DNA from: an uncultured Planctomycetota bacterium
GTDB taxonomy: Bacteria > Planctomycetota > Planctomycetia > Isosphaerales > Isosphaeraceae
Direction of reading: 5' to 3'
Length of the DNA stretch: 64,000 bases
NCBI GenBank assembly: GCA_963845755.1
Contig: CAWJTV010000006.1
Span: 32,001 to 96,000 of the forward strand
Part shown: piece by piece, positions 1 to 8,810 of the stretch
Position numbering within the stretch: the first letter of the stretch is position 1
Layout: each line of letters begins with the position of its first letter
Notes under the pieces: generated by a model
Databases searched by the model: none
What the model was told of the DNA's origin: nothing
The model's input: the letters and a program-made list of their open reading frames with translations, nothing else
Program-made: the position numbers and the translations under genes

Positions 1-1955
1 TCCGACCGAAGTATGGGCAAGGATGGCAGCCCGGGCTCGATCCCCGTCCAAGGCAGGCTGACAGCCGCGGTCTTGGAGAGGATGAGTCAACATGATTACA
101 TCTCAACGGAGGTCAGCCCTGAGCCCTCCCGTCACCCGCCATTTCGAGTTCACCCGGTTTCAGGATGAGGCGATCGCGCTGGCATACCAGGCCTTGATCC
201 CGGTCGTTTCTCGCCACCGGGAACGGTCGCGATCGCGATCTCACGACAACGAGCAGGCCACCACAACGATGCAGGGACTCCGATCAAAGGCCAGAGGAGC
301 TTGACCCGTCATGCTCAATTGCGATCTCTGTGTGGGGACCTATGGCCGGGTCTCCGGGGACCAACAGTCCAAGGAGGACACGATCGCCAGCCAGCTTGAG
401 GCGATCAGGCAGCGCGTCGCGAGCGACGGCTTGGTATGCTCCCCCGAGCTGTGCTTCGTGGACGATGGCTACACCGGGGATACCCTGGTCCACCCGGGCC
501 TCGAACGACTTCGGGACCAGGCCGCTGCTGGGACCATCGATCGCCTCTACATTCTCGATCCCGATCGACTTTCACGCAAATATGCCTATCAGGTTTTGAT
601 ACTCGAGGAACTGGCCCGGTGCGGCGTTGAGGTCGTCTTCCTGCACTCCCCTGGGCCACGGACCCGAAGAGAACCTGCTTGTGCAGGTCCAGGGCATGAT
701 CGCCGAATACGAGCGTGCCAAGATCATGGAGCGGTGTCGCCGAGGCAAGCAGTACGCCGCCCGCCACGGCTCGGTCAACGTGCTCAGCGGCGCGCCGTAT
801 GGCTACCGCTACATCGGCAAGCATGAGGGCGGCGGCGCGGCGCGTTATCAGGTCGTGGCCGACAAGGCGCGGATCGTGCGGAAGATCTTCGGGTGGGTCG
901 GCCAGGAACGATGCTCGATCGGTGAGGTTTGCCGACGTCTGCAACGCGACGGCGTCCCCACGCGGACGGGCAAATCGGCCTGGGACCGCTCGGTGATCTG
1001 GTCGTATCTCAGGAACCCTGCCTACAAGGGGACGGCCGGCTTCGGCAAGACGCCGCGCGGCGCCCTCAAGCCGAAGCGGCTGCGAGCGCAACGCGGCCGT
1101 CCTGAGCAGCCCCGGCGTCCTGTCTCTCGGGTCGATACATCCGCGCAAGAACAAATCTTCATCGATGTCCCCGGTTTGGTGAGCGAGGAACTCTTCGGGA
1201 CGGTTCAAGCTCAACTCGAGGAGAACCGGCAACGCCGGCGCGAACGGCTCCGTGGCGACCGCTATCTCCTCCAGGGGTTAGTTGTCTGCAAACGGTGCGG
1301 CTACGGCTGCTACGGCAAGCCGGTGAGCCGGGCCTCGGCCAAGGGGAAGGTCCCCTACGCCTACTACCGCTGCACCGGCTCCGACGCCTATCGTTTCGGT
1401 GGCCAGCGACTGTGTTGGAACAAGCAGGTCCGCACGGATGTCTTGGACGCCGCCGTCTGGGAAGATGTGCGTCATCTCTTGTCCGAGCCCGAACGGGTTC
1501 GAGTGGAGTACGAACGGCGGCGGCACGGGCCGGAGACAGGCCCAGACCGCGAGGTGAAGCATCTCAACAAATTGATTGCGAATCTAAAAAAGATGATCGC
1601 TCGATTGATCGATGCCTACGGCGAGGGATTACTTAACAAGTCGGAGTTCGAGCCGAGGATCTTGGCAGCGCGCGAGCGCCTGGCCAAACTAGAGGATGAG
1701 TGTCGGCAGCAGATTGACGAGGCCAACCAGGAAGCCGAACTGCGGCTGGTGATCGGCCAGTTGGAGGAGTTCGCGAGACGCGTTTCCCAGGAGTTGCACG
1801 AGCCGGACTGGGCCACGCGACGGGCGATCGTTCGGGCTTTGGTGAAGCAGGTCGAGATCGACGAGCAGGAGGTCCGCATCGTGTATCGGATCAGTCCGTC
1901 CCCTTTTGAGGGAGGCCCCCAACAGGGTTCTTTGCAACATTGTTGGGGGCGTGAT
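1..1955 (+). mobile_element. LSR element 1 (left end outside window), inserted antisense into group II intron RT at the PQGSPI motif
   Basis: Minus-strand RT frame reads ...GRGSPQGSPI, then departs from the expected SPLL at ~1947-1955, where the LSR C-terminal coding sequence ends; exact junction unresolved. Confidence 0.75.
92..304 (+). CDS. small accessory ORF upstream of LSR1
   Basis: 70 aa ORF, purine-rich GAGAGGA upstream, stop 6 nt before the recombinase ATG. Confidence 0.5.
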   Translation: MITSQRRSALSPPVTRHFEFTRFQDEAIALAYQALIPVVSRHRERSRSRSHDNEQATTTMQGLRSKARGA

Positions 1956-2204
1956 CGGCGAGCCCTGGGGGCTCCCTCTCCCCTCGTCCTTGTTCCGGGT
2001 GGTCCGATGACGATGGCCCCGCGCGTCGGTCTCTTCCACCGGTGCCTCCAGCCACATCTTGATCAGCTTCAGGACGAAGCGGTCGCTGATGCGCCGGGAC
2101 AGCGATTTCATCAACTCGGCATGGGGTATCGCGTCGAACGAAACCCTACCTTGATACCTCATTCAACAAGCCACTCGCGTCCACGCCCGAGGAGATCGAG
2201 GTAA
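311..2204 (+). CDS. large serine recombinase LSR1 (one frameshift near 655)
   Basis: YGRVS catalytic motif, DDGYTG, DRLSR, GAPYGY, YLLQGLVVCKRCG and YYRC zinc ribbon, coiled coil; ORFs 311..826 and 627..2204 join; recombinase-like sequence ends ~1950 (QHCWGR). Confidence 0.92.
1953..2138 (-). pseudogene. ltrA: group II intron RT, middle fragment (FDAIPH...PQGSPI)
   Basis: FDAIPHAELMKSLSRRISDRFVLKLIKMWLEAPV...GSPQGSPI = RT subdomains 3-4. Confidence 0.92.
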
Positions 2205-2476
2205 CCGACCCGACTCATCCCCTCTTCGGTCGCCACTTCCCCGTCCTCTCGGTCTGCCGGCCACCCCACGGCACCCCGTTCGTGCTCGTGGCCTATCGCG
2301 ACGCGATGCGGCTGCGCATCCCACTGTCTTCGACCAGCCTGGCACCGAGCCCGATCCACCCTCCTCGGACAAGATGGACCGCGGAAGCCATCCAGGAACT
2401 TCTTTCCTTGGTCACGGAGGGTGACACGTCATGCCCCAAGCCCAAGACGTCTGGTCAGTGCTCCCGTCAGCCCTGA
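2135..2476 (+). CDS. start-less accessory ORF of LSR element 2 (EVTDPTHPLFGRHF motif); 116 aa when completed in the circle
   Basis: Open frame from the att core to TGA 2476; in-frame RBS and ATG lie at 4570-4586 at the other end of the element. Confidence 0.7.
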   Translation, partial: RTKPYLDTSFNKPLASTPEEIEVTDPTHPLFGRHFPVLSVCRPPHGTPFVLVAYRDAMRLRIPLSSTSLAPSPIHPPRTRWTAEAIQELLSLVTEGDTSCPKPKTSGQCSRQP

Positions 2477-2664
2477 GACAGCAGGTGATCGACGACATCA
2501 CGGCCATCTACGCGGAGGTTATCCATGAGCATTTCCGAACACATTACCCCGTTCCATCTCGGCCGCAAGGCCCTGATCTATGTCCGCCAGTCCAACCCAC
2601 ATCAGGTCCTCACCCACCAGGAGAGCCGTCGTCTTCAGTACGCCCTCCAGCAGCGGGCTCGTGA
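2431..2664 (+). CDS. small ORF overlapping the LSR2 start
   Basis: GGAGG RBS then MPQAQDVWSVLPSALRQQVIDDITAIYAEVIH; overlaps both neighbours. Confidence 0.45.
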   Translation: MPQAQDVWSVLPSALRQQVIDDITAIYAEVIHEHFRTHYPVPSRPQGPDLCPPVQPTSGPHPPGEPSSSVRPPAAGS

Positions 2665-4571
2665 GTGTGGCTGGGCGGCCCGAGGACATCGAGATCATCG
2701 ACGCCGACCTCGGCCAGACGGCCAGCACCACTCAAGGCCGGCAGGGATTCCAGGAGATCGTCACTCGGGTCACCCTCGACCAGGTCGGCATCATCTTCTC
2801 TTATGATGTCACCCGACTGTCACGCAACTGCACCGAATGGTACCCAGTCCTCGACCTCTGTGGATTCCGCCGTTGCCTCATCGGCGACCGAGACGGGATC
2901 TACGACCCCGCTACAATCAACGGTCGCCTCTTGCTCGGGCTGAAGGGCCAGATCTCCGAGCTGGAGCTTCATACGATCAAGGCTCGCTTGACGGCCGGCC
3001 TGCTCAACAAGGCACAGCGCGGCGAGCTGGCCCTGTCCCTCCCCGTGGGACTAACACGCGACCCACTGGGCCGCGTCGTGAAGCGACCGGATCGCGAAGT
3101 CCAGGACCGCCTCGACCTCGTCTTCGCCACCTTTCTCCGCATCCGCACCCTCAGTGGGGTCGTCCGTGCATTTCGAGATGAGGACTTGTTGCTACCTCGA
3201 CATGACGACTTCGGCGAAGTCGTCTGGCGCCGCCCAACCGTCCCCTCCGTCCGCTCCATCCTGAAGAACCCGGCGTACGCCGGGTCATTCGTCTACGGCC
3301 GCACCCGGACCGTGAGAGACGGCCCGGGCCGTCGGCCGGTCCAGAAGCCGTTGCCGATGTCCGAGTGGCGAATCCATATCCGGGATATCTATCCCCCCTA
3401 CATCGATTGGGCCACTTATGAGAAGATCCAGGGCATGATCCGCGACAACCACAGCGAATACGATCGGAACCAGACCCGGGGTGTCCCCCGGCCGGGGAAG
3501 GCCCTGCTCCACGGGCTCGTCGCCTGCGGCGAGTGCGGCCACAAGCTGACAGTGCAGTACAAGTTCAAGACGCAATATATTTGCAACTCGATGTGGAAAC
3601 AGCACCGCGCTCCGGTCTGCCAGCGGCTCCCTGCGGACCCGATCGATGACCACGTCGTCCGCCGCTTCTTCGAGGCGTTAGCCCCCGCGGAGTTGGACGT
3701 CTACGACCGGGTCCGGGCCTCGCTCTCGGAAGAACAAGAGCAGATCGGGCGGGCGCGACGGCAGCAACTCGATCGGCTCCGCTACCAGGCTCGACTCGCC
3801 GAGCATCAGTACCAAAAGGCCGACCCCGACAACCGCCTCGTGGCCGCCGAGCTGGAGCGCCGATGGGAGGTGGCTCTGCGGGAGTTGAAAGAGGCCGAAG
3901 AGGCATGGGAACGCGAGCAACACGAACAAGCGACACTGGAGCGTCTCGACCCCGAGACACGGCGGGCACTTACCGAAGCCGGGGAACGAATCCCGGAATG
4001 GTGGCGGGCCGACCGTTTCTCGCAGGAACAGAAGAAGGCGCTACTCCGGAGCCTGATCGACAAGGTCGTCGTCCAACGTACGGCGCCGGACATCGTGCGC
4101 TGCCGGGTTGTCTGGAAGGGAGGTGAGACGACGGACGCCGACCTCGCGGTCACAGTCGGTGCCTGGTCACGCCTGTCAGGCGGCCAAGTGATGGAGCAGA
4201 CGATCCTGGAACTGGCCCGGCAAGGAAAGACCGACCAGGAGATCGCCCGGAGATTGACCGAGGAAGGCCACCGTTCGCCACGGCATGCAATCGTCCTGCC
4301 GAGTACGGTCCAGGCCATCCGTCTGCACCATCGCCTGTACCGCGACCGGAGACGAGCACATCCGCGGCGGATCGCGGGGTTCCTGACCGTGCCGCAACTC
4401 GCCTCGAAGTTGAAGCTTCCCCGAAGCTGGATCTACGACCGCATCCACAATTGCAAGATTCAAGTTGATCTCGATGCCACATGGAAGCTCTATCTGTTCC
4501 CCGACAACCCTGAGACTCTCACCCGGTTTCGGCAACTCGTGGCTGGGAAGCTCAACACCTTACGTTTTTAG
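2525..4571 (+). CDS. large serine recombinase LSR2 with C-terminal HTH-like extensions (frameshift near 2675)
   Basis: YVRQS, DADLG, TRLSRN, LLHGLVACGECG, DPDNRLVAAELERRW; GGAGG RBS before ATG 2525. Confidence 0.92.
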
Positions 4572-4591
4572 GAGGGCATCAAGATGCCGTC

Positions 4592-5109
4592 TCGAAGTAA
4601 CCGGAAAGATCGCCGTCGACCACCTCGGTATGCCCGTTCCGGACCAGCCGTTCGACTTGCCTCACGGCGTCGAGGGCGCTCCGTCCTGGGCGATACCCGT
4701 ATTGCTCCGGCTCCAGGTCGGCCTCGAAGATCGGCTCCAAGACCAGCACCGCGGCCATCTGCGCTACGCGGTCCTTGATGCAGGGAATCCCCAGCGGCCT
4801 TTGCTTGCCATCCGGTTTAGGGATGTACACGCGTCGGATCGGCTGGGGTGAGTACGTCCGCTTCTTGAGGTCGTCCGCCAATTCGTCCAGCCATCGGTCC
4901 AGTCCGTATGCTTCGATGTCGTCGAACGTCTGGCCATCGACCCCGGCGGCGCCACCGTTGGCACGGCAGCGGGCGTAGGCTTCCTCCAGGACGTCGCGGC
5001 GATAGACCTTGTCATACAGCGCATAGAACCGATAGTCAGGCGACCCCTTCGCTTTGGTGTGCAACGCCGTCTGGAGTTTCTGAACCGTCGGTGGAGGTGC
5101 TAGGCTCAT
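4592..5109 (-). pseudogene. ltrA: group II intron RT, N-terminal fragment
   Basis: RFYALYDKV, GAAGVDG, RVYIPKPDGKQRPLGIP, DRVAQ, YGYRPGRS, VVDGDLSGYF. Confidence 0.95.
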
Positions 5110-5630
5110 TGCCAATCTCCTGGCTCTCATGCCCCTTGTGACGCTGACCTTGAACTGAGGCCCCTTTGCTCCGCCGGCGTTACCCGGCTTCCTCGCTCAT
5201 ACGGGCCTCTCCGCCACCTCGGGCGGCCCGACCTGGCCCTCGCGGGTTGTCGGTTGAGGGTCACGCGCCCTCACCGCCGAGGCTTCCCGTGTTGCGTCGG
5301 ATCTCCTCTGCAGGCATGCCACCGCCAATACCCCGGTGGAACCCTGGGAGCGTGTCGCGTCGTGAGGGGTAACCCCCTCTGTCTCCCAGGACGGCGGCCT
5401 TCCCCGTATAGCAACCGGGTCGGCTTCCACATCGGGTTGTTTCGGGGCTTGCACGGCGTTCACTGTCGTTGCGGCCTGCCTGCTCGCCGAACCGCCACAG
5501 CGGCCCGTTGTCTCGAAGGCTTCGACGGCTTTGTCACCTCCGCCGCCGCTCCGATCGCTACCGGATGGAGCGACCAGTTTTCCGGGCGGGATTCGCACCC
5601 GCTGAAGATCCGAGCCTTTTCACGGCGCAC

Positions 5631-5645
5631 TGCTATCGGAACCCC
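5631..5645 (-). repeat. outer 15 nt of a 38-bp GGGG-type (Tn3-like) terminal IR; 5' exon of the intron
   Basis: GGGGTTCCGATAGCA matches the IR at 30818-30855 at 14/15. Confidence 0.7.
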
Positions 5646-5770
5646 AGCCCGCGTTCGGTGAGTTGGTCCAACAAGGTATCCAGGAGGAGCTGTCCGGCTT
5701 GGCCATTGACCAGGCGAGCGCGGAACTCGCTGAGCACGGTGTGGTTGAACCCAGGATCGTCCAGTTCTAG

Positions 5771-7236
5771 TACTACTCCGTTAAAATTTCCATTTGTTGG
5801 GTGTAGAGATGAGCACAAGGGTGGCAATACGGACAATCCGGTCGCGCCCGTGGGCTCAGCAACCGCTGCAAGGCGCGACGGATCGCCGGCAAGGTGATCC
5901 GTCGCGCCTTATCCCCTTTTTTTCTCGGCACGGCCGGGTGCTCTTTCTCTCGAAGTTGTTCCAGGACCAGGAAACCGAACGCCAACATCACCAGGCAGAC
6001 ATGGTGATGGAAGCCGCGCCACGAACGGCCCTCGAAATGATCCAGACCCAACTCCTCCTTCATCTGTTGGTAGCCTTGCTCGACCGGCCATCGGCTCTTC
6101 CACAATCGGACCGCCCGCAGCCGCGGGGTGTCGGCCGGCAGGTTGCTGAAGGCGTACTTCAACGTGCCGTCGGCCTGCCGCTCGATCAACAGCCAAATCG
6201 GCTCGGCCCCGGCACAGTCGCCCGTGGCCCAGCCGCCGCCGGGCCAGACCCGCAACCAGGCGAAGTGGCCCGACAGCTTCCCTTTGGTCCCCTCGCGCCA
6301 GGTCACCTTGTGCAGGGTCGTCCGTGCCGCCAGGTCCTTCAGGCTCACGGGCCGGGGGGTACCCTCGGCCAACCGGGGCCGCCGCCGCGGCCGTCCGCCC
6401 GTCCCCTCAGGCCGCGCCGCTGGCCCGGGTGGCTCCCACTGAGGCTCGGCGGTGAAGACGACCATCTCGTCGGTGACACCCACGATGTACGCCAGCCCAC
6501 GAGCGGCCAACCCCTTGCGAAAGTCCTCCGAGACCCCGTAACCGGCGTCGGCCACGGCGAGCCACCCCGGCAGCCCTTCGCCGCGCACCATGTCCAGCAA
6601 TCCCAAGGCGATCTCGCCTTTGGTCTGGGCTCGACGGACGGCCTCCGGAACACCCGCCGCGCCCAGTCGCTTCGGATCCTGGATCCAGGAGTCGGGCAAG
6701 AACAGCCGCATTGCCAACGGATAATGGCCCTTGGGGCTAACGTAGTGGACCGAGGGGGCCACCTGGCAATTGGCCTTCTTGCCCAAGGCCCCGCAATATT
6801 GCCTCTGGACACCGACGGAGTGCTTCCCCTGCTTGGGGAAACCCGTGTCGTCGAAGACGAAGATCCCTTGGGGGCTGGCGAAGGTCTGGGCCAGGTGCTT
6901 TCGATAGTCGCGTGCGAGCTCCTGGTCGTCCCAGGGGCTCTGGTTGACGAACTGCTGGAGGGCCTGCTCCTTGTCCTTGACGTCCAGGTCCGGCGGGAGC
7001 GTGACGCGACCGGAGAGGGGCTCGATGCTCTTGCGTTCGCCGTCCTGGAGCAGCCCTTGGAGAGAGACCCCGCTCCAGGCGGCCTGCGCCTTGTGGGAGA
7101 AGCCATCGCGGAACACGTCCGCATAATCCCGAAGTCGCTCGAGGACTTCGGGCGTCAGTTCGGGGGTGTAAGTCTTGCTCATAATGATCATACGAACAAA
7201 GGCCCCGAGAAGTTCGTAGGATCTAACGGAGTAGTA
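5771..7236 (-). mobile_element. IS701-family element
   Basis: 13-bp perfect IRs TACTACTCCGTTA; CTAG duplicated at 5767-5770 and 7237-7240. Confidence 0.95.
5773..7191 (-). CDS. IS701-family transposase
   Basis: DDTGFPKQGKHSVGVQRQYCGALGKKANCQV, ADAGYG, RWPVEQGYQQMKEELGLDHFEGRSW. Confidence 0.95.
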   Translation of the reverse strand: MIIMSKTYTPELTPEVLERLRDYADVFRDGFSHKAQAAWSGVSLQGLLQDGERKSIEPLSGRVTLPPDLDVKDKEQALQQFVNQSPWDDQELARDYRKHLAQTFASPQGIFVFDDTGFPKQGKHSVGVQRQYCGALGKKANCQVAPSVHYVSPKGHYPLAMRLFLPDSWIQDPKRLGAAGVPEAVRRAQTKGEIALGLLDMVRGEGLPGWLAVADAGYGVSEDFRKGLAARGLAYIVGVTDEMVVFTAEPQWEPPGPAARPEGTGGRPRRRPRLAEGTPRPVSLKDLAARTTLHKVTWREGTKGKLSGHFAWLRVWPGGGWATGDCAGAEPIWLLIERQADGTLKYAFSNLPADTPRLRAVRLWKSRWPVEQGYQQMKEELGLDHFEGRSWRGFHHHVCLVMLAFGFLVLEQLREKEHPAVPRKKGDKARRITLPAIRRALQRLLSPRARPDCPYCHPCAHLYTQQMEILTE

Positions 7237-7239
7237 CTA

Positions 7240-8248
7240 GAGTCGCCTTACGTTTGCATTGCATACGCCGCACGGTGTCCGAACCAGCCCGCGATATCCT
7301 CGGGGAGTCACGTCATGCAAGGCCGAGACGAACGCCGCATAGACCGCCTCCTTCGTCCGCGCCGCCATCGATCGCATCGCACCTTTAATCTTCGAGGCCA
7401 TCTCCTCATAGGGCGTCAGGTCCGGACTCCACGGCGGCAACGGCACCAAGTCGGCCCCGGCCCCCGCGACAGCCTCGGCCGCCTCCTCCGACTGGTGCGA
7501 CGACAGGTTGTCCCAGATGACCACGTCGCCGGGCTTCAACTCCGGGACCAGGACATCCTCCACGTAGTTCTCGAACATGGCCTGATTGGTGGCGCCGGGA
7601 AGGCCAACGCCGCCGTCACCCCGGAGAGGCGAACCCCGCAGGTGAGCGTGATCGAATCCCAGTGGCCGGGGGTATCGGTGTAGACGCGCTGGCCCACCGG
7701 GGCACGGCCGTAGGTCCTCGTCATGGACGTGTTGGCCCCGCATTCGTCCACGAAAACCAGCCGGTGCGGGTCGATGCCGGAGAGGGCCTCACAGAAATCC
7801 CGCCGTTTCTCCTGGACCTCCGGGCGATCCTGCTCGTTGCGCGCGGGACCTTCTTCTTGCGCGGCAACCCCAGCTTGTCCAGGGCGCGACAGATGGCGGC
7901 GGTGCTGCAAGCGACGCCGAGGCGCTTTTGCAACTCTTCGAGGGTGGCGTCGGGCTGCTGGCGGACCAACTCGCGGAGCCGCTCGTAATCCTCCGGTCCC
8001 AGCGCCGGCGGATGACCGCCGCGGTGGGGCTTGGGCGCGATCGAGCCGGTCCGGCGGTGGATCTGCAACAAGCGAACGACGAACGAGAGGCTGACGACGA
8101 AGCGGCGAGCGATCTGACGGATCGAGCCCTCGCCGCGCTCGACCGCGTCCAGGACGCGTTGTCGGAGATCGTGGGAATACGGGGACATGGGTCACCTCCT
8201 CACGAGAATCTCCGTTCAAATCGTATGCCATCCAACCGTTCGGCGCTC
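7240..8248 (-). mobile_element. IS630-family element, copy 1 (split transposase 8188 to ~7250)
   Basis: TA flanks; YSHDLRQRV HTH, FVDECG, IWDNLSSH, LPPWSPDLTPYE; near-identical to 24033-25041. Confidence 0.93.
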
Positions 8249-8399
8249 TAAGGCCAGGGCGTACTTCCAGTCGATGCGGCCGCGGACGGCATCGGCGGCC
8301 TGGCGGTCGGAGAGGCCCTCGAGGTATTGGAGGACACAGACCCAAGCCAGGCGTGCGGGTGAGGCGGCCGGCTGACCACGAGTGGGGAACAGCGCGGCG

Positions 8400-8810
8400 A
8401 AGCGGTACGTCGCCGGCTCGATCCACTGGCGGACCGGGACGGTCTTCGCCACCTGTGGGCCGAAGCGAGATGCGAAGCTCTTCCTGGCCCATCTGGAGGA
8501 CCTGCGGCATCGGCTGAGGCGCTATCGGAAGGTCCATGTGATCTGCGACTGCGCCAAGTTCCATCACATCGACGAGGTGCGGGTCTACCTTTGGGAGCAC
8601 CGCGATCGGATCGAACTGGTGATGCTGCCGGCGTACAGCCCGGACGCTAATCCGATGGAGCGGGTCTGGTGGCTGGTGCGGGAGCATGTCACGCGGAACC
8701 ATCGGTGGCACGACTCGGCGAAATTGGTGGGGATGGTCATGCGGTATCTGGAGTCGGAAGCGCCCTTCCGGCTTGAGGATGAGGAATACAAGATCCCCAG
8801 GGCCGCGTAA
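8400..8810 (+). pseudogene. C-terminal part of another IS630-family transposase
   Basis: VICDCAKFH, LPAYSPDANPMERVW; 5' part missing, abuts the IS1182 remnant. Confidence 0.85.

Follow-up and report, generated by a model that had tools for sequence, protein, structure and literature searches.

Insertion-sequence-sized large serine recombinase elements at conserved reverse transcriptase motifs of group II introns in a Planctomycetota genome

The split group II intron

The DNA analyzed here, henceforth the window, is a stretch of 64,000 nucleotides (C6:32001-96000) of the 14.3-Mb, 49-contig genome assembly of an uncultured Planctomycetota bacterium (GCA_963845755.1). Near its left end lies a group II intron whose reverse transcriptase (RT) gene is interrupted by two elements, here called A and B, each of the size of an insertion sequence (IS) and each encoding a large serine recombinase (LSR). 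Contigs are referred to as C6, C24 and so on; positions without a contig name are window positions.

The 5' RNA part of the intron (region of domains I-IV; 5131..5630, minus strand) was delimited from its sequence and from a match to Rfam RF02003 (group-II-D1D4-4; 5464-5604, minus strand, 100.9 bits). It starts at 5630 with GTGCG, the reverse complement of 5626-5630. It is followed by the N-terminal part of the RT (M...VDGDLSGYF; 4597..5130, minus strand), which covers RVT_1 profile positions 1-81, and, between both insertions, by a middle fragment recognized by translation (D AIPH ... PQGSPI; 1954..2138, minus strand) and 76% identical to a paralogue on C22. The ribozyme 5' domains, the GTGCG terminus and the RVT_1 matches in the open reading frame (ORF) pieces together identify the host as a group II intron. 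This locus lacks domains V-VI as well as the RT gene's 3' half, so the window copy of the intron is a fragment.

The RT/maturase ORF of this intron is split by the insertions. Its reading from 5130 to 4597 ends with VDGDLSGYF and is picked up from 2138 to 1954 as DAIPHAEL...RGSPQGSPI. In line with the original prediction, which had been made from the letters of the window and had the RT gene cut at DLSGYF|D by a 2458-bp element bounded by TCGAA, excising element B rejoins ...GYFDAIPH in frame, and the paralogous intron on C22 has an uninterrupted DLSGYFDSIPH. The second LSR element that it placed at PQGSPI of the same RT is also present, as the reading loses sense beyond PQGSPI at 1954, where element A begins. 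With its ORF split in this way, the intron would presumably be disabled for retrohoming and would have lost its mobility.

Element A and its copies in the genome

Element A occupies 1..1953 of the window (plus strand), and its left end lies at C6:31937, 63 nt upstream of the window start. From a comparison of an occupied with an intact intron, the element measures 2019 bp with its 2-bp core counted once; the window thus holds 1953 bp of the 2017 bp of the element, plus the 2-bp core. The right end is at 1953 (...GGGGGCGTG) and abuts the proposed central crossover dinucleotide, AT (1954-1955), which is duplicated at both junctions wherever the empty site reads AT. The right terminal inverted repeat (IR), TTTGCAACATTGTTGGGGGCGTG (1931..1953, plus strand), matches the left end exactly in reverse complement. 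These 23-bp IRs are perfect and identical in all copies, the same or a similar IR was found in relatives of the element, and the joined ends of A form a perfect palindrome centred on AT.

BLAST revealed six copies of A with the same ends and 94-98% identity, on C6, C24, C3, C16, C47 and C22. Two of these lie in stretches at the start of their contigs (C24:1-5128 and C16:1-5129) that are reverse complements of each other over 5.1 kb with 99.8% identity and may represent either one locus assembled twice or an inverted duplication; the copy number is therefore five to six. All six copies interrupt RT genes at one and the same codon, between PQGG-I/S/V and I/V-SP. The element is in sense with the RT on C22 and C47 and antisense on C3 and C24/C16, both orientations occur within one intron family (C3 vs C47), and at least four different intron families of this genome are affected. 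Empty sites are available from two intact family-1 introns (C13, C45), with AT at the centre, and from five intact family-2 introns (C41, C47), with GT. Moreover, in family-1 intron RT genes, C38 (start) and C29 (end) break off precisely at the A core and C17 (start) precisely at the B core; three contig ends that coincide with attachment site cores suggest that the assembler left further element copies unplaced.

Two side observations concern these copies. The family-1 intron at C24:1-7000 carries three nested insertions, namely A and, elsewhere in the intron, two unrelated elements of about 2.5 kb and 1.53 kb. In addition, a short contig assembled from a public sequencing run joins the right end of A (loose end at 1956) to the C-terminal half of a family-1 RT, in the orientation opposite to that of the family-1 A copies assembled in this genome.

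The copy of A in the window differs in its flanks. The original prediction had expected a leftward extension of the contig to reveal the SPLL..YADD half of the same RT. Instead, the left flank is the N-terminal half of another intron-type RT (C6:31554-31943, plus strand), which is broken at its own PQGGI and ends with GTPQGGIT; Rfam at the gathering score detected no intron RNA in the left flank of the window. Window A is hence flanked by two RT N-halves pointing at each other, and is antisense to the RT on its right and sense to the one on its left, so that the earlier claim that both elements lie antisense to the RT stands for B and, with respect to the right-hand RT, for A, and fails for the left-hand RT. 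As the RT on the left is a different one, the locus has been rearranged since A inserted. Such a layout could have arisen by recombination between two inverted copies of A; RT halves are also arranged head-to-head at the relative loci L016 and L051, and tail-to-tail at L021. A missing RT continuation on the left had been named beforehand as a refuting observation, and it is accounted for here by a rearrangement and not by an unrelated target.

Element B and its copies in the genome

Element B measures 2458 bp (2139..4596, plus strand) and is bounded by TCGAA at 2134-2138 and 4592-4596, with AA (2137-2138 / 4595-4596) as the proposed central dinucleotide. When its ends are joined, ATCAAG (4578-4583) and CTTGAT (2150-2155) come to lie at 11+2+11 nt around AA, which is the IR (ATCAAG-N24-CTTGAT) that had been predicted, and the copy on C11 keeps this geometry and five of the six IR positions.

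Three copies of B are present. Those on C11 and C26 share 74% identity with the window copy and show no difference from one another over 2452 nt (100% identity), indicating recent movement. On C11, B interrupts the RT of a family-3 intron at GDIKSCF|D, the empty site of which is seen in five intact family-3 copies, while the C26 copy lies in a repetitive extragenic palindrome (REP)-like repeat and not in an RT gene, leaving two of the three copies in RT genes.

Recombinases of A and B

The main reading frame of LSR-A (311..1953, plus strand) encodes a protein of about 600 aa with Resolvase (PF00239, residues 10-113, E 5e-16), Recombinase and Zn_ribbon_recom domains. LSR-B (2525..4571, plus strand; about 681 aa) has the same three domains, with PF00239 at residues 16-167 (E 2.3e-19). 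Both proteins thus have the N-terminal catalytic domain followed by the recombinase and zinc-ribbon domains (PF07508 and PF13408, above cut-off in each) that define LSRs, and the context of the serine, as read from the sequences, is YVRQS / YGRVS. A search of PDB sequences with LSR-B matched two catalytic-domain fragments only. As is typical of LSR attachment sites, two inverted half-sites surround a dinucleotide that is shared with the target: the palindrome around AT in A, and the IR around AA, with TCGAA in common, in B. Both enzymes are predicted to act in recombination between an attachment site on the element (attP) and one in the target (attB).

Both recombinase genes are out of frame in the window. 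LSR-A is 2 nt short near 646-652 compared with its sister copies, and LSR-B has one extra base near 2677, with an intact ORF of 681 aa being present on C11/C26. A contig assembled from soil short reads matches the window exactly over 2475-2738 minus one base at 2677, which restores the frame; some frameshifts may therefore be assembly errors, and the assembly probably holds indel errors.

Relatives of A and B in other genomes

From a scan of one genome per species for A-type elements, we took the best 80 of 581 relatives (44-89% identity), 11 of which were cut by contig ends, leaving 69 assessable loci; counts are approximate, since end-finding is imprecise at some distant loci. An RT half, broken 3-8 residues past PQG, was found at one or both junctions of 46 of the 69. 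These comprise 30 loci with N- and C-terminal halves in the normal order (16 with A in sense, 14 antisense), two with head-to-head RT halves, two with C-terminal halves on both sides and 12 with an RT half on one flank only. Two further loci have an unsplit RT nearby and the other 21 have none. Carriers of these relatives include Singulisphaera acidiphila DSM 18658, many Planctomycetota metagenome-assembled genomes, and members of Chloroflexota, Acidobacteriota, Pseudomonas, Paraburkholderia and Mycoavidus, and the RT-flanked loci come from records of Planctomycetota, Chloroflexota, Acidobacteriota and Pseudomonadota. Several of the contigs carrying relatives are about 2.0 kb long and consist of the element alone.

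A metagenome scan for B-type elements yielded 80 loci (52-91% identity), of which seven have both flanks too short and 73 are assessable. RT halves broken at D....F|D flank 40 of the 73, and in all 40 the RT is antisense to the recombinase; the break is seen on both sides in 18, on the only assessable side in another 18, and on one side, with an RT-less other side, in four. Accordingly, the expectation that homologues would mostly be found in RT genes split at the same codons, as members of a class of LSR elements targeting RT motifs, agrees with both tabulations.

Approximately a dozen more LSR genes of this genome have 33-48% identity to LSR-B, none of them near an RT match; they are located at C20:716153, C48:17447, C13:344178, C13:347809, C21:78982, C19:9019, C19:35862, C22:63496, C40:81040, C20:742686, C25:10866 and C9:4855-6876.

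A protein search of plasmids matched 27 records. On the TOL plasmid pWW53 (NC_008275.1:74913-84172), a single RT gene contains two insertions: a B-like element interrupts it at DADITSF|FDEIDH and an A-like one at TPQGAVI|ISPLLANI. Order and orientation of the two are as in the window, with the C-terminal RT part in place. The locus lies between xylS and benABC-type genes, and the record annotates only 'recombinase family protein' pieces.

The genome also harbours a sister family of A, here called A2, whose recombinase is 47% identical to LSR-A. Its six copies (C42:185853-187483, C11:819763-821395, C11:827481-829111, C18:9665-11299, C13:234819-236434 and C20:3530-5140) are about 2.0 kb long and 96-99% identical. 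The empty site, located by BLAST of the flanks, is not an RT gene but a REP-like hairpin repeat of which dozens of empty copies exist, and its core, CC, is matched. Like A and B, A2 is multicopy, has defined ends, measures less than about 2.5 kb and carries movement genes only, in keeping with our working definition of an IS.

Reading frames across the joined ends

In both families a gene appears to run across the junction that forms when the ends are joined. The frame of LSR-A meets no stop before the right end of the element, and at the left end a coding stretch (1..95, plus strand, frame 3, stop TGA at 93-95) would, on joining of the ends, add about 50 codons as a C-terminal tail. Among 36 parsed relatives of A, the LSR frame lacks a stop inside the element in all 36 and ends at +158 past the joined junction in 22. 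Beyond the IR, the tail keeps SR..LR..YG.GF across phyla by means of synonymous swaps (CGN/AGA and others), and the recombinase frame of A2 is completed across its joined ends likewise. Read in this way, the LSR-A gene would be complete only across the joined ends. The ATG of a small ORF of A (92..304, plus strand, 70 aa) overlaps the stop of the tail (ATGA); this ORF has tblastn matches in 25 relatives with 51-78% identity, the gaps being whole codons, and no family match in Pfam.

In element B, the corresponding gene is orfX (2135..2476, plus strand; 113 codons and a stop), which stays open as far as the left end and lacks an in-frame start upstream of a conserved EIEVTDPTHPLF motif. It is conserved right up to the left end in 76 of the 80 metagenome relatives. 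At the right end, just past the LSR-B stop, GGAGGG and 7 nt precede an ATG (4571..4586, plus strand) that is in frame with orfX across the junction in the window copy, in C11/C26 and in pWW53. Many metagenome loci share this GGAGGG-ATG arrangement; one subgroup instead has the LSR stop directly next to TCGAA. A second small ORF, orfY (2431..2664, plus strand), shares sequence with the end of orfX and with the beginning of LSR-B. Its first 35 codons or so are conserved and tblastn matches were obtained in 76 of 80 relatives, while its C-terminal part overlaps LSR-B in another frame, sometimes with stops. The small ORFs of A and B match no Pfam family above cut-off; orfX has a weak match to DUF5372, below cut-off, in both versions.

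The central dinucleotide of A

The dinucleotide AT is present at both junctions of A where the empty site has AT. In family-2 introns, with GT in the empty site, GT is retained at the N-side junction, whereas the C-side one reads AT. AT flanks the element on both sides in 16 of the 36 parsed relatives. Most of the other parsed loci show AT at one junction, on either side, and another dinucleotide (GC, AC, CT, AG, TT and others) opposite, and in a few lineages the two junctions carry a matched pair other than AT (CT, AG, CG). Characterized serine integrases such as those of phiC31 and Bxb1 are not known to tolerate mismatched central dinucleotides, so that, in view of the non-AT targets, the crossover model may lack a component. 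Moving the cut to any one other position leaves a mismatch at some of the A loci. A fixed central cut would fit if mismatched overhangs were joined and the two strands then separated by replication. The CC core of A2, situated at the same spacing from the IR, supports the position assigned to the centre of A.

Interpretation and alternative explanations

Taken together, the data make it highly probable that A and B are two IS-sized families whose sole enzyme is an LSR and whose preferred attachment site is the DNA of a conserved motif of group II intron RT genes. Element A targets motif 4 (PQG-x-x-|-I/V-SP) and element B motif 3 (D-x-x-x-x-F|D), and the two families are unrelated in detail.

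A number of observations weigh against this reading. No RT flank is found at 21 of the 69 A-type loci, at 33 of the 73 B-type metagenome loci (mostly in a group with 52-55% identity), or at any of 17 B-type loci (33-48% identity) from other genomes in a sample of 400 genomes of the phylum, suggesting that RT targeting by B is limited to the closer clade found in the metagenomes. RT targeting by relatives, as it had been proposed, hence extends to all six A copies and two of the three B copies in this genome and to the majority of assessable scanned loci, and excludes A2, one B copy and the loci just mentioned. Furthermore, the target dinucleotide differs from AT in about one third of the parsed A loci. 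All six A copies in this genome contain frame-breaking indels, at differing positions, which may mean that the copies are dead or that the long-read assembly is in error, as at 2677. When close copies are compared, the A tail shows only weak periodicity in codon-position diversity, and the case for a coding tail rests on the distant relatives. Finally, no circle junction or excision joint was detected in public runs, which cover little of the stretch: the best run contained 0.11 of the sampled words, and four runs gave short contigs that leave most of the stretch uncovered, so that the absence of a joint says nothing for or against excision.

As to mechanism, serine recombinase chemistry suggests that the LSR would join both element ends, yielding a circle that carries attP. 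Recombination of attP with the RT motif, acting as attB, would then proceed through a 2-bp staggered exchange, in which one junction of A would keep AT and the other the dinucleotide of the target. Since attP of A is palindromic around AT, entry would be possible in either orientation; the AA centre of B is not palindromic, which would fix its orientation, antisense to the RT. The last 50 or so codons of LSR-A and the start codon of orfX of B would straddle attP, and with a gene straddling attP in both families, the full gene set would exist only in the circle. For the window copy of A, a rearrangement following insertion would have placed it between the N-halves of two RT genes.

A bolder extension, which we put forward tentatively and regard as rather less likely than its converse, sees A and B as members of a guild of recombinase-only parasites of retroelements, in which different LSR lineages each claim their own RT motif. 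Here, an integrated copy would produce an LSR with a truncated or random tail (A) or no orfX (B), whereas the circle would produce the full set. The two forms of one gene would run excision and integration without a separate directionality factor, and an attP located inside a gene would mean that the element carries its own directionality switch. The A enzymes would moreover join ends with mismatched central dinucleotides, the mismatch being sorted out by replication.

Alternatively, the elements might spread mainly as passengers lodged in intron domain IV, the composite intron being copied by retrohoming with RT supplied in trans from intact sisters and the recombinase playing a minor role. 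Intact sister introns able to supply RT are indeed found in this genome, introns carry their cargo in domain IV, and C24 and C16 share a 5.1-kb composite with 99.8% identity. However, that composite is located at the start of both contigs, possibly as a single locus that was assembled twice, the same A element is present in at least four intron families here and in many more elsewhere, in both orientations, and B also resides in a non-intron repeat, with a copy 100% identical to one in an intron. We therefore think passenger spread improbable.

No better placed is the idea that A is mainly an invertible segment, its LSR flipping the DNA between perfect IRs in the manner of Hin/Gin, with the two orientations reflecting switching. 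The 23-bp perfect inverted ends, the palindromic AT centre and the occurrence of both orientations in one intron family (C3 vs C47) are what such a segment would show, and the head-to-head and tail-to-tail RTs (window, L016, L051, L021) indicate recombination between inverted copies. Inversion cannot account, however, for copies in different introns and genomes or for empty sites; moreover, neither orientation of A restores the RT gene, and the enzyme is a large serine recombinase and not a small invertase.

Chance nesting, with RT genes as frequent landing pads in an IS-rich genome, could appeal to a locus full of other ISs and to the two additional unrelated insertions in a family-1 intron, but every RT-associated copy of A and B, here and across phyla, breaks the same codon while the other insertions on C24 lie at different positions, and we consider this explanation, to which we attach almost no credence, refuted by the tabulation across genomes.

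Comparison with known systems

Preferred insertion of A and B at RT motifs invites comparison with other recombinase-borne elements. To our knowledge, IS607 is the only IS family that uses a serine recombinase. Like A and B, IS607 is IS-sized, but its TnpA is small, with an N-terminal helix-turn-helix and little target choice. Assignment of A and B to IS607 was rejected, as they place the catalytic domain at the N-terminus, ahead of PF07508 and PF13408, in proteins of about 600 and 681 aa.

The enzymes of phiC31, Bxb1, A118, SPbeta and skin are LSRs with the same succession of catalytic, recombinase and zinc-ribbon domains. Gene-interrupting elements of this type resemble A and B in integrating site-specifically within coding sequence at a short shared core, such that precise excision would restore the gene. 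They are, however, phages or multi-gene islands that have a single site in a genome, whereas A and B are multicopy, measure 2.0-2.5 kb, encode no more than a recombinase plus one or two tiny ORFs and target a motif of another mobile element. The gin element of Bacillus cereus (PMC5595907) belongs with these gene-interrupting elements.

Closer in target choice is phiRv1 of Mycobacterium tuberculosis, an LSR element with a repeated and probably mobile attB (REP13E12) and several sites per genome. Unlike A and B, phiRv1 is a prophage-like element of about 10 kb with a separate directionality factor, and it targets a lineage-specific repeat as opposed to a protein motif shared across phyla. Tn4451/Tn4453 (TnpX) and Tn5397 (TndX), in turn, use an LSR as transposase via a circle and have several targets, as in the model for A and B, but carry cargo genes and have loose targets around GA, whereas the targets of A and B are long and specific. 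DUF4368 did not match LSR-A or LSR-B in searches at E <= 0.01 and E <= 1, setting both enzymes apart from TnpX/TndX; this domain marks the TndX-like multi-targeting LSR clade (PMC10083194).

An attP inside the recombinase gene, as proposed for A, is also found in SSV1-type archaeal integrases and in the Myxococcus phage Mx8, so that the gene is altered or split on integration. Those are viral tyrosine recombinases, whereas A is an IS-like LSR element in which only the last 50 or so codons are separated. Finally, IS110/IS1111 and IS3-type elements are likewise small, target repeats (REP, attC) and create an expression signal at the circle junction, but they use DEDD or DDE enzymes and their junction builds a promoter rather than a reading frame.

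A full-text literature search, which included PMC4853749, PMC10083194 and PMC5595907 and had subscription journals outside its scope, returned no description of LSR elements targeting RT motifs. The elements described here would add a kind of IS moved by an LSR, with a target that is a coding motif of another selfish element and is conserved across phyla; in other words, a parasite would itself be parasitized through sequence-specific integration. For dozens of natural pairs of enzyme and site, the attachment sites are resolved here to single bases, and the system is directly testable, as one pair resides on the well-studied Pseudomonas plasmid pWW53. The palindromic site, the apparent tolerance of dinucleotide mismatches and the predicted completion of the recombinase gene only in the circle bear on how serine integrases control direction and orientation, a question also relevant to their use as genome-engineering tools.

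Sequences surrounding the locus

Directly past the 5' end of the intron, window positions 5633-8800 contain several transposase ORFs, for instance at 5773-7191 (minus strand), as well as frameshifted transposase pieces at 7237-8188 (minus strand), placing the intron within a nest of insertion sequences. On the other side, IS21-type istA/istB-like ORFs (C6:29087-31035) are found directly upstream of the RT in the left flank of A. Among the plasmids retrieved in the protein search, pDK1 (NC_014124.1) was a further matching record.

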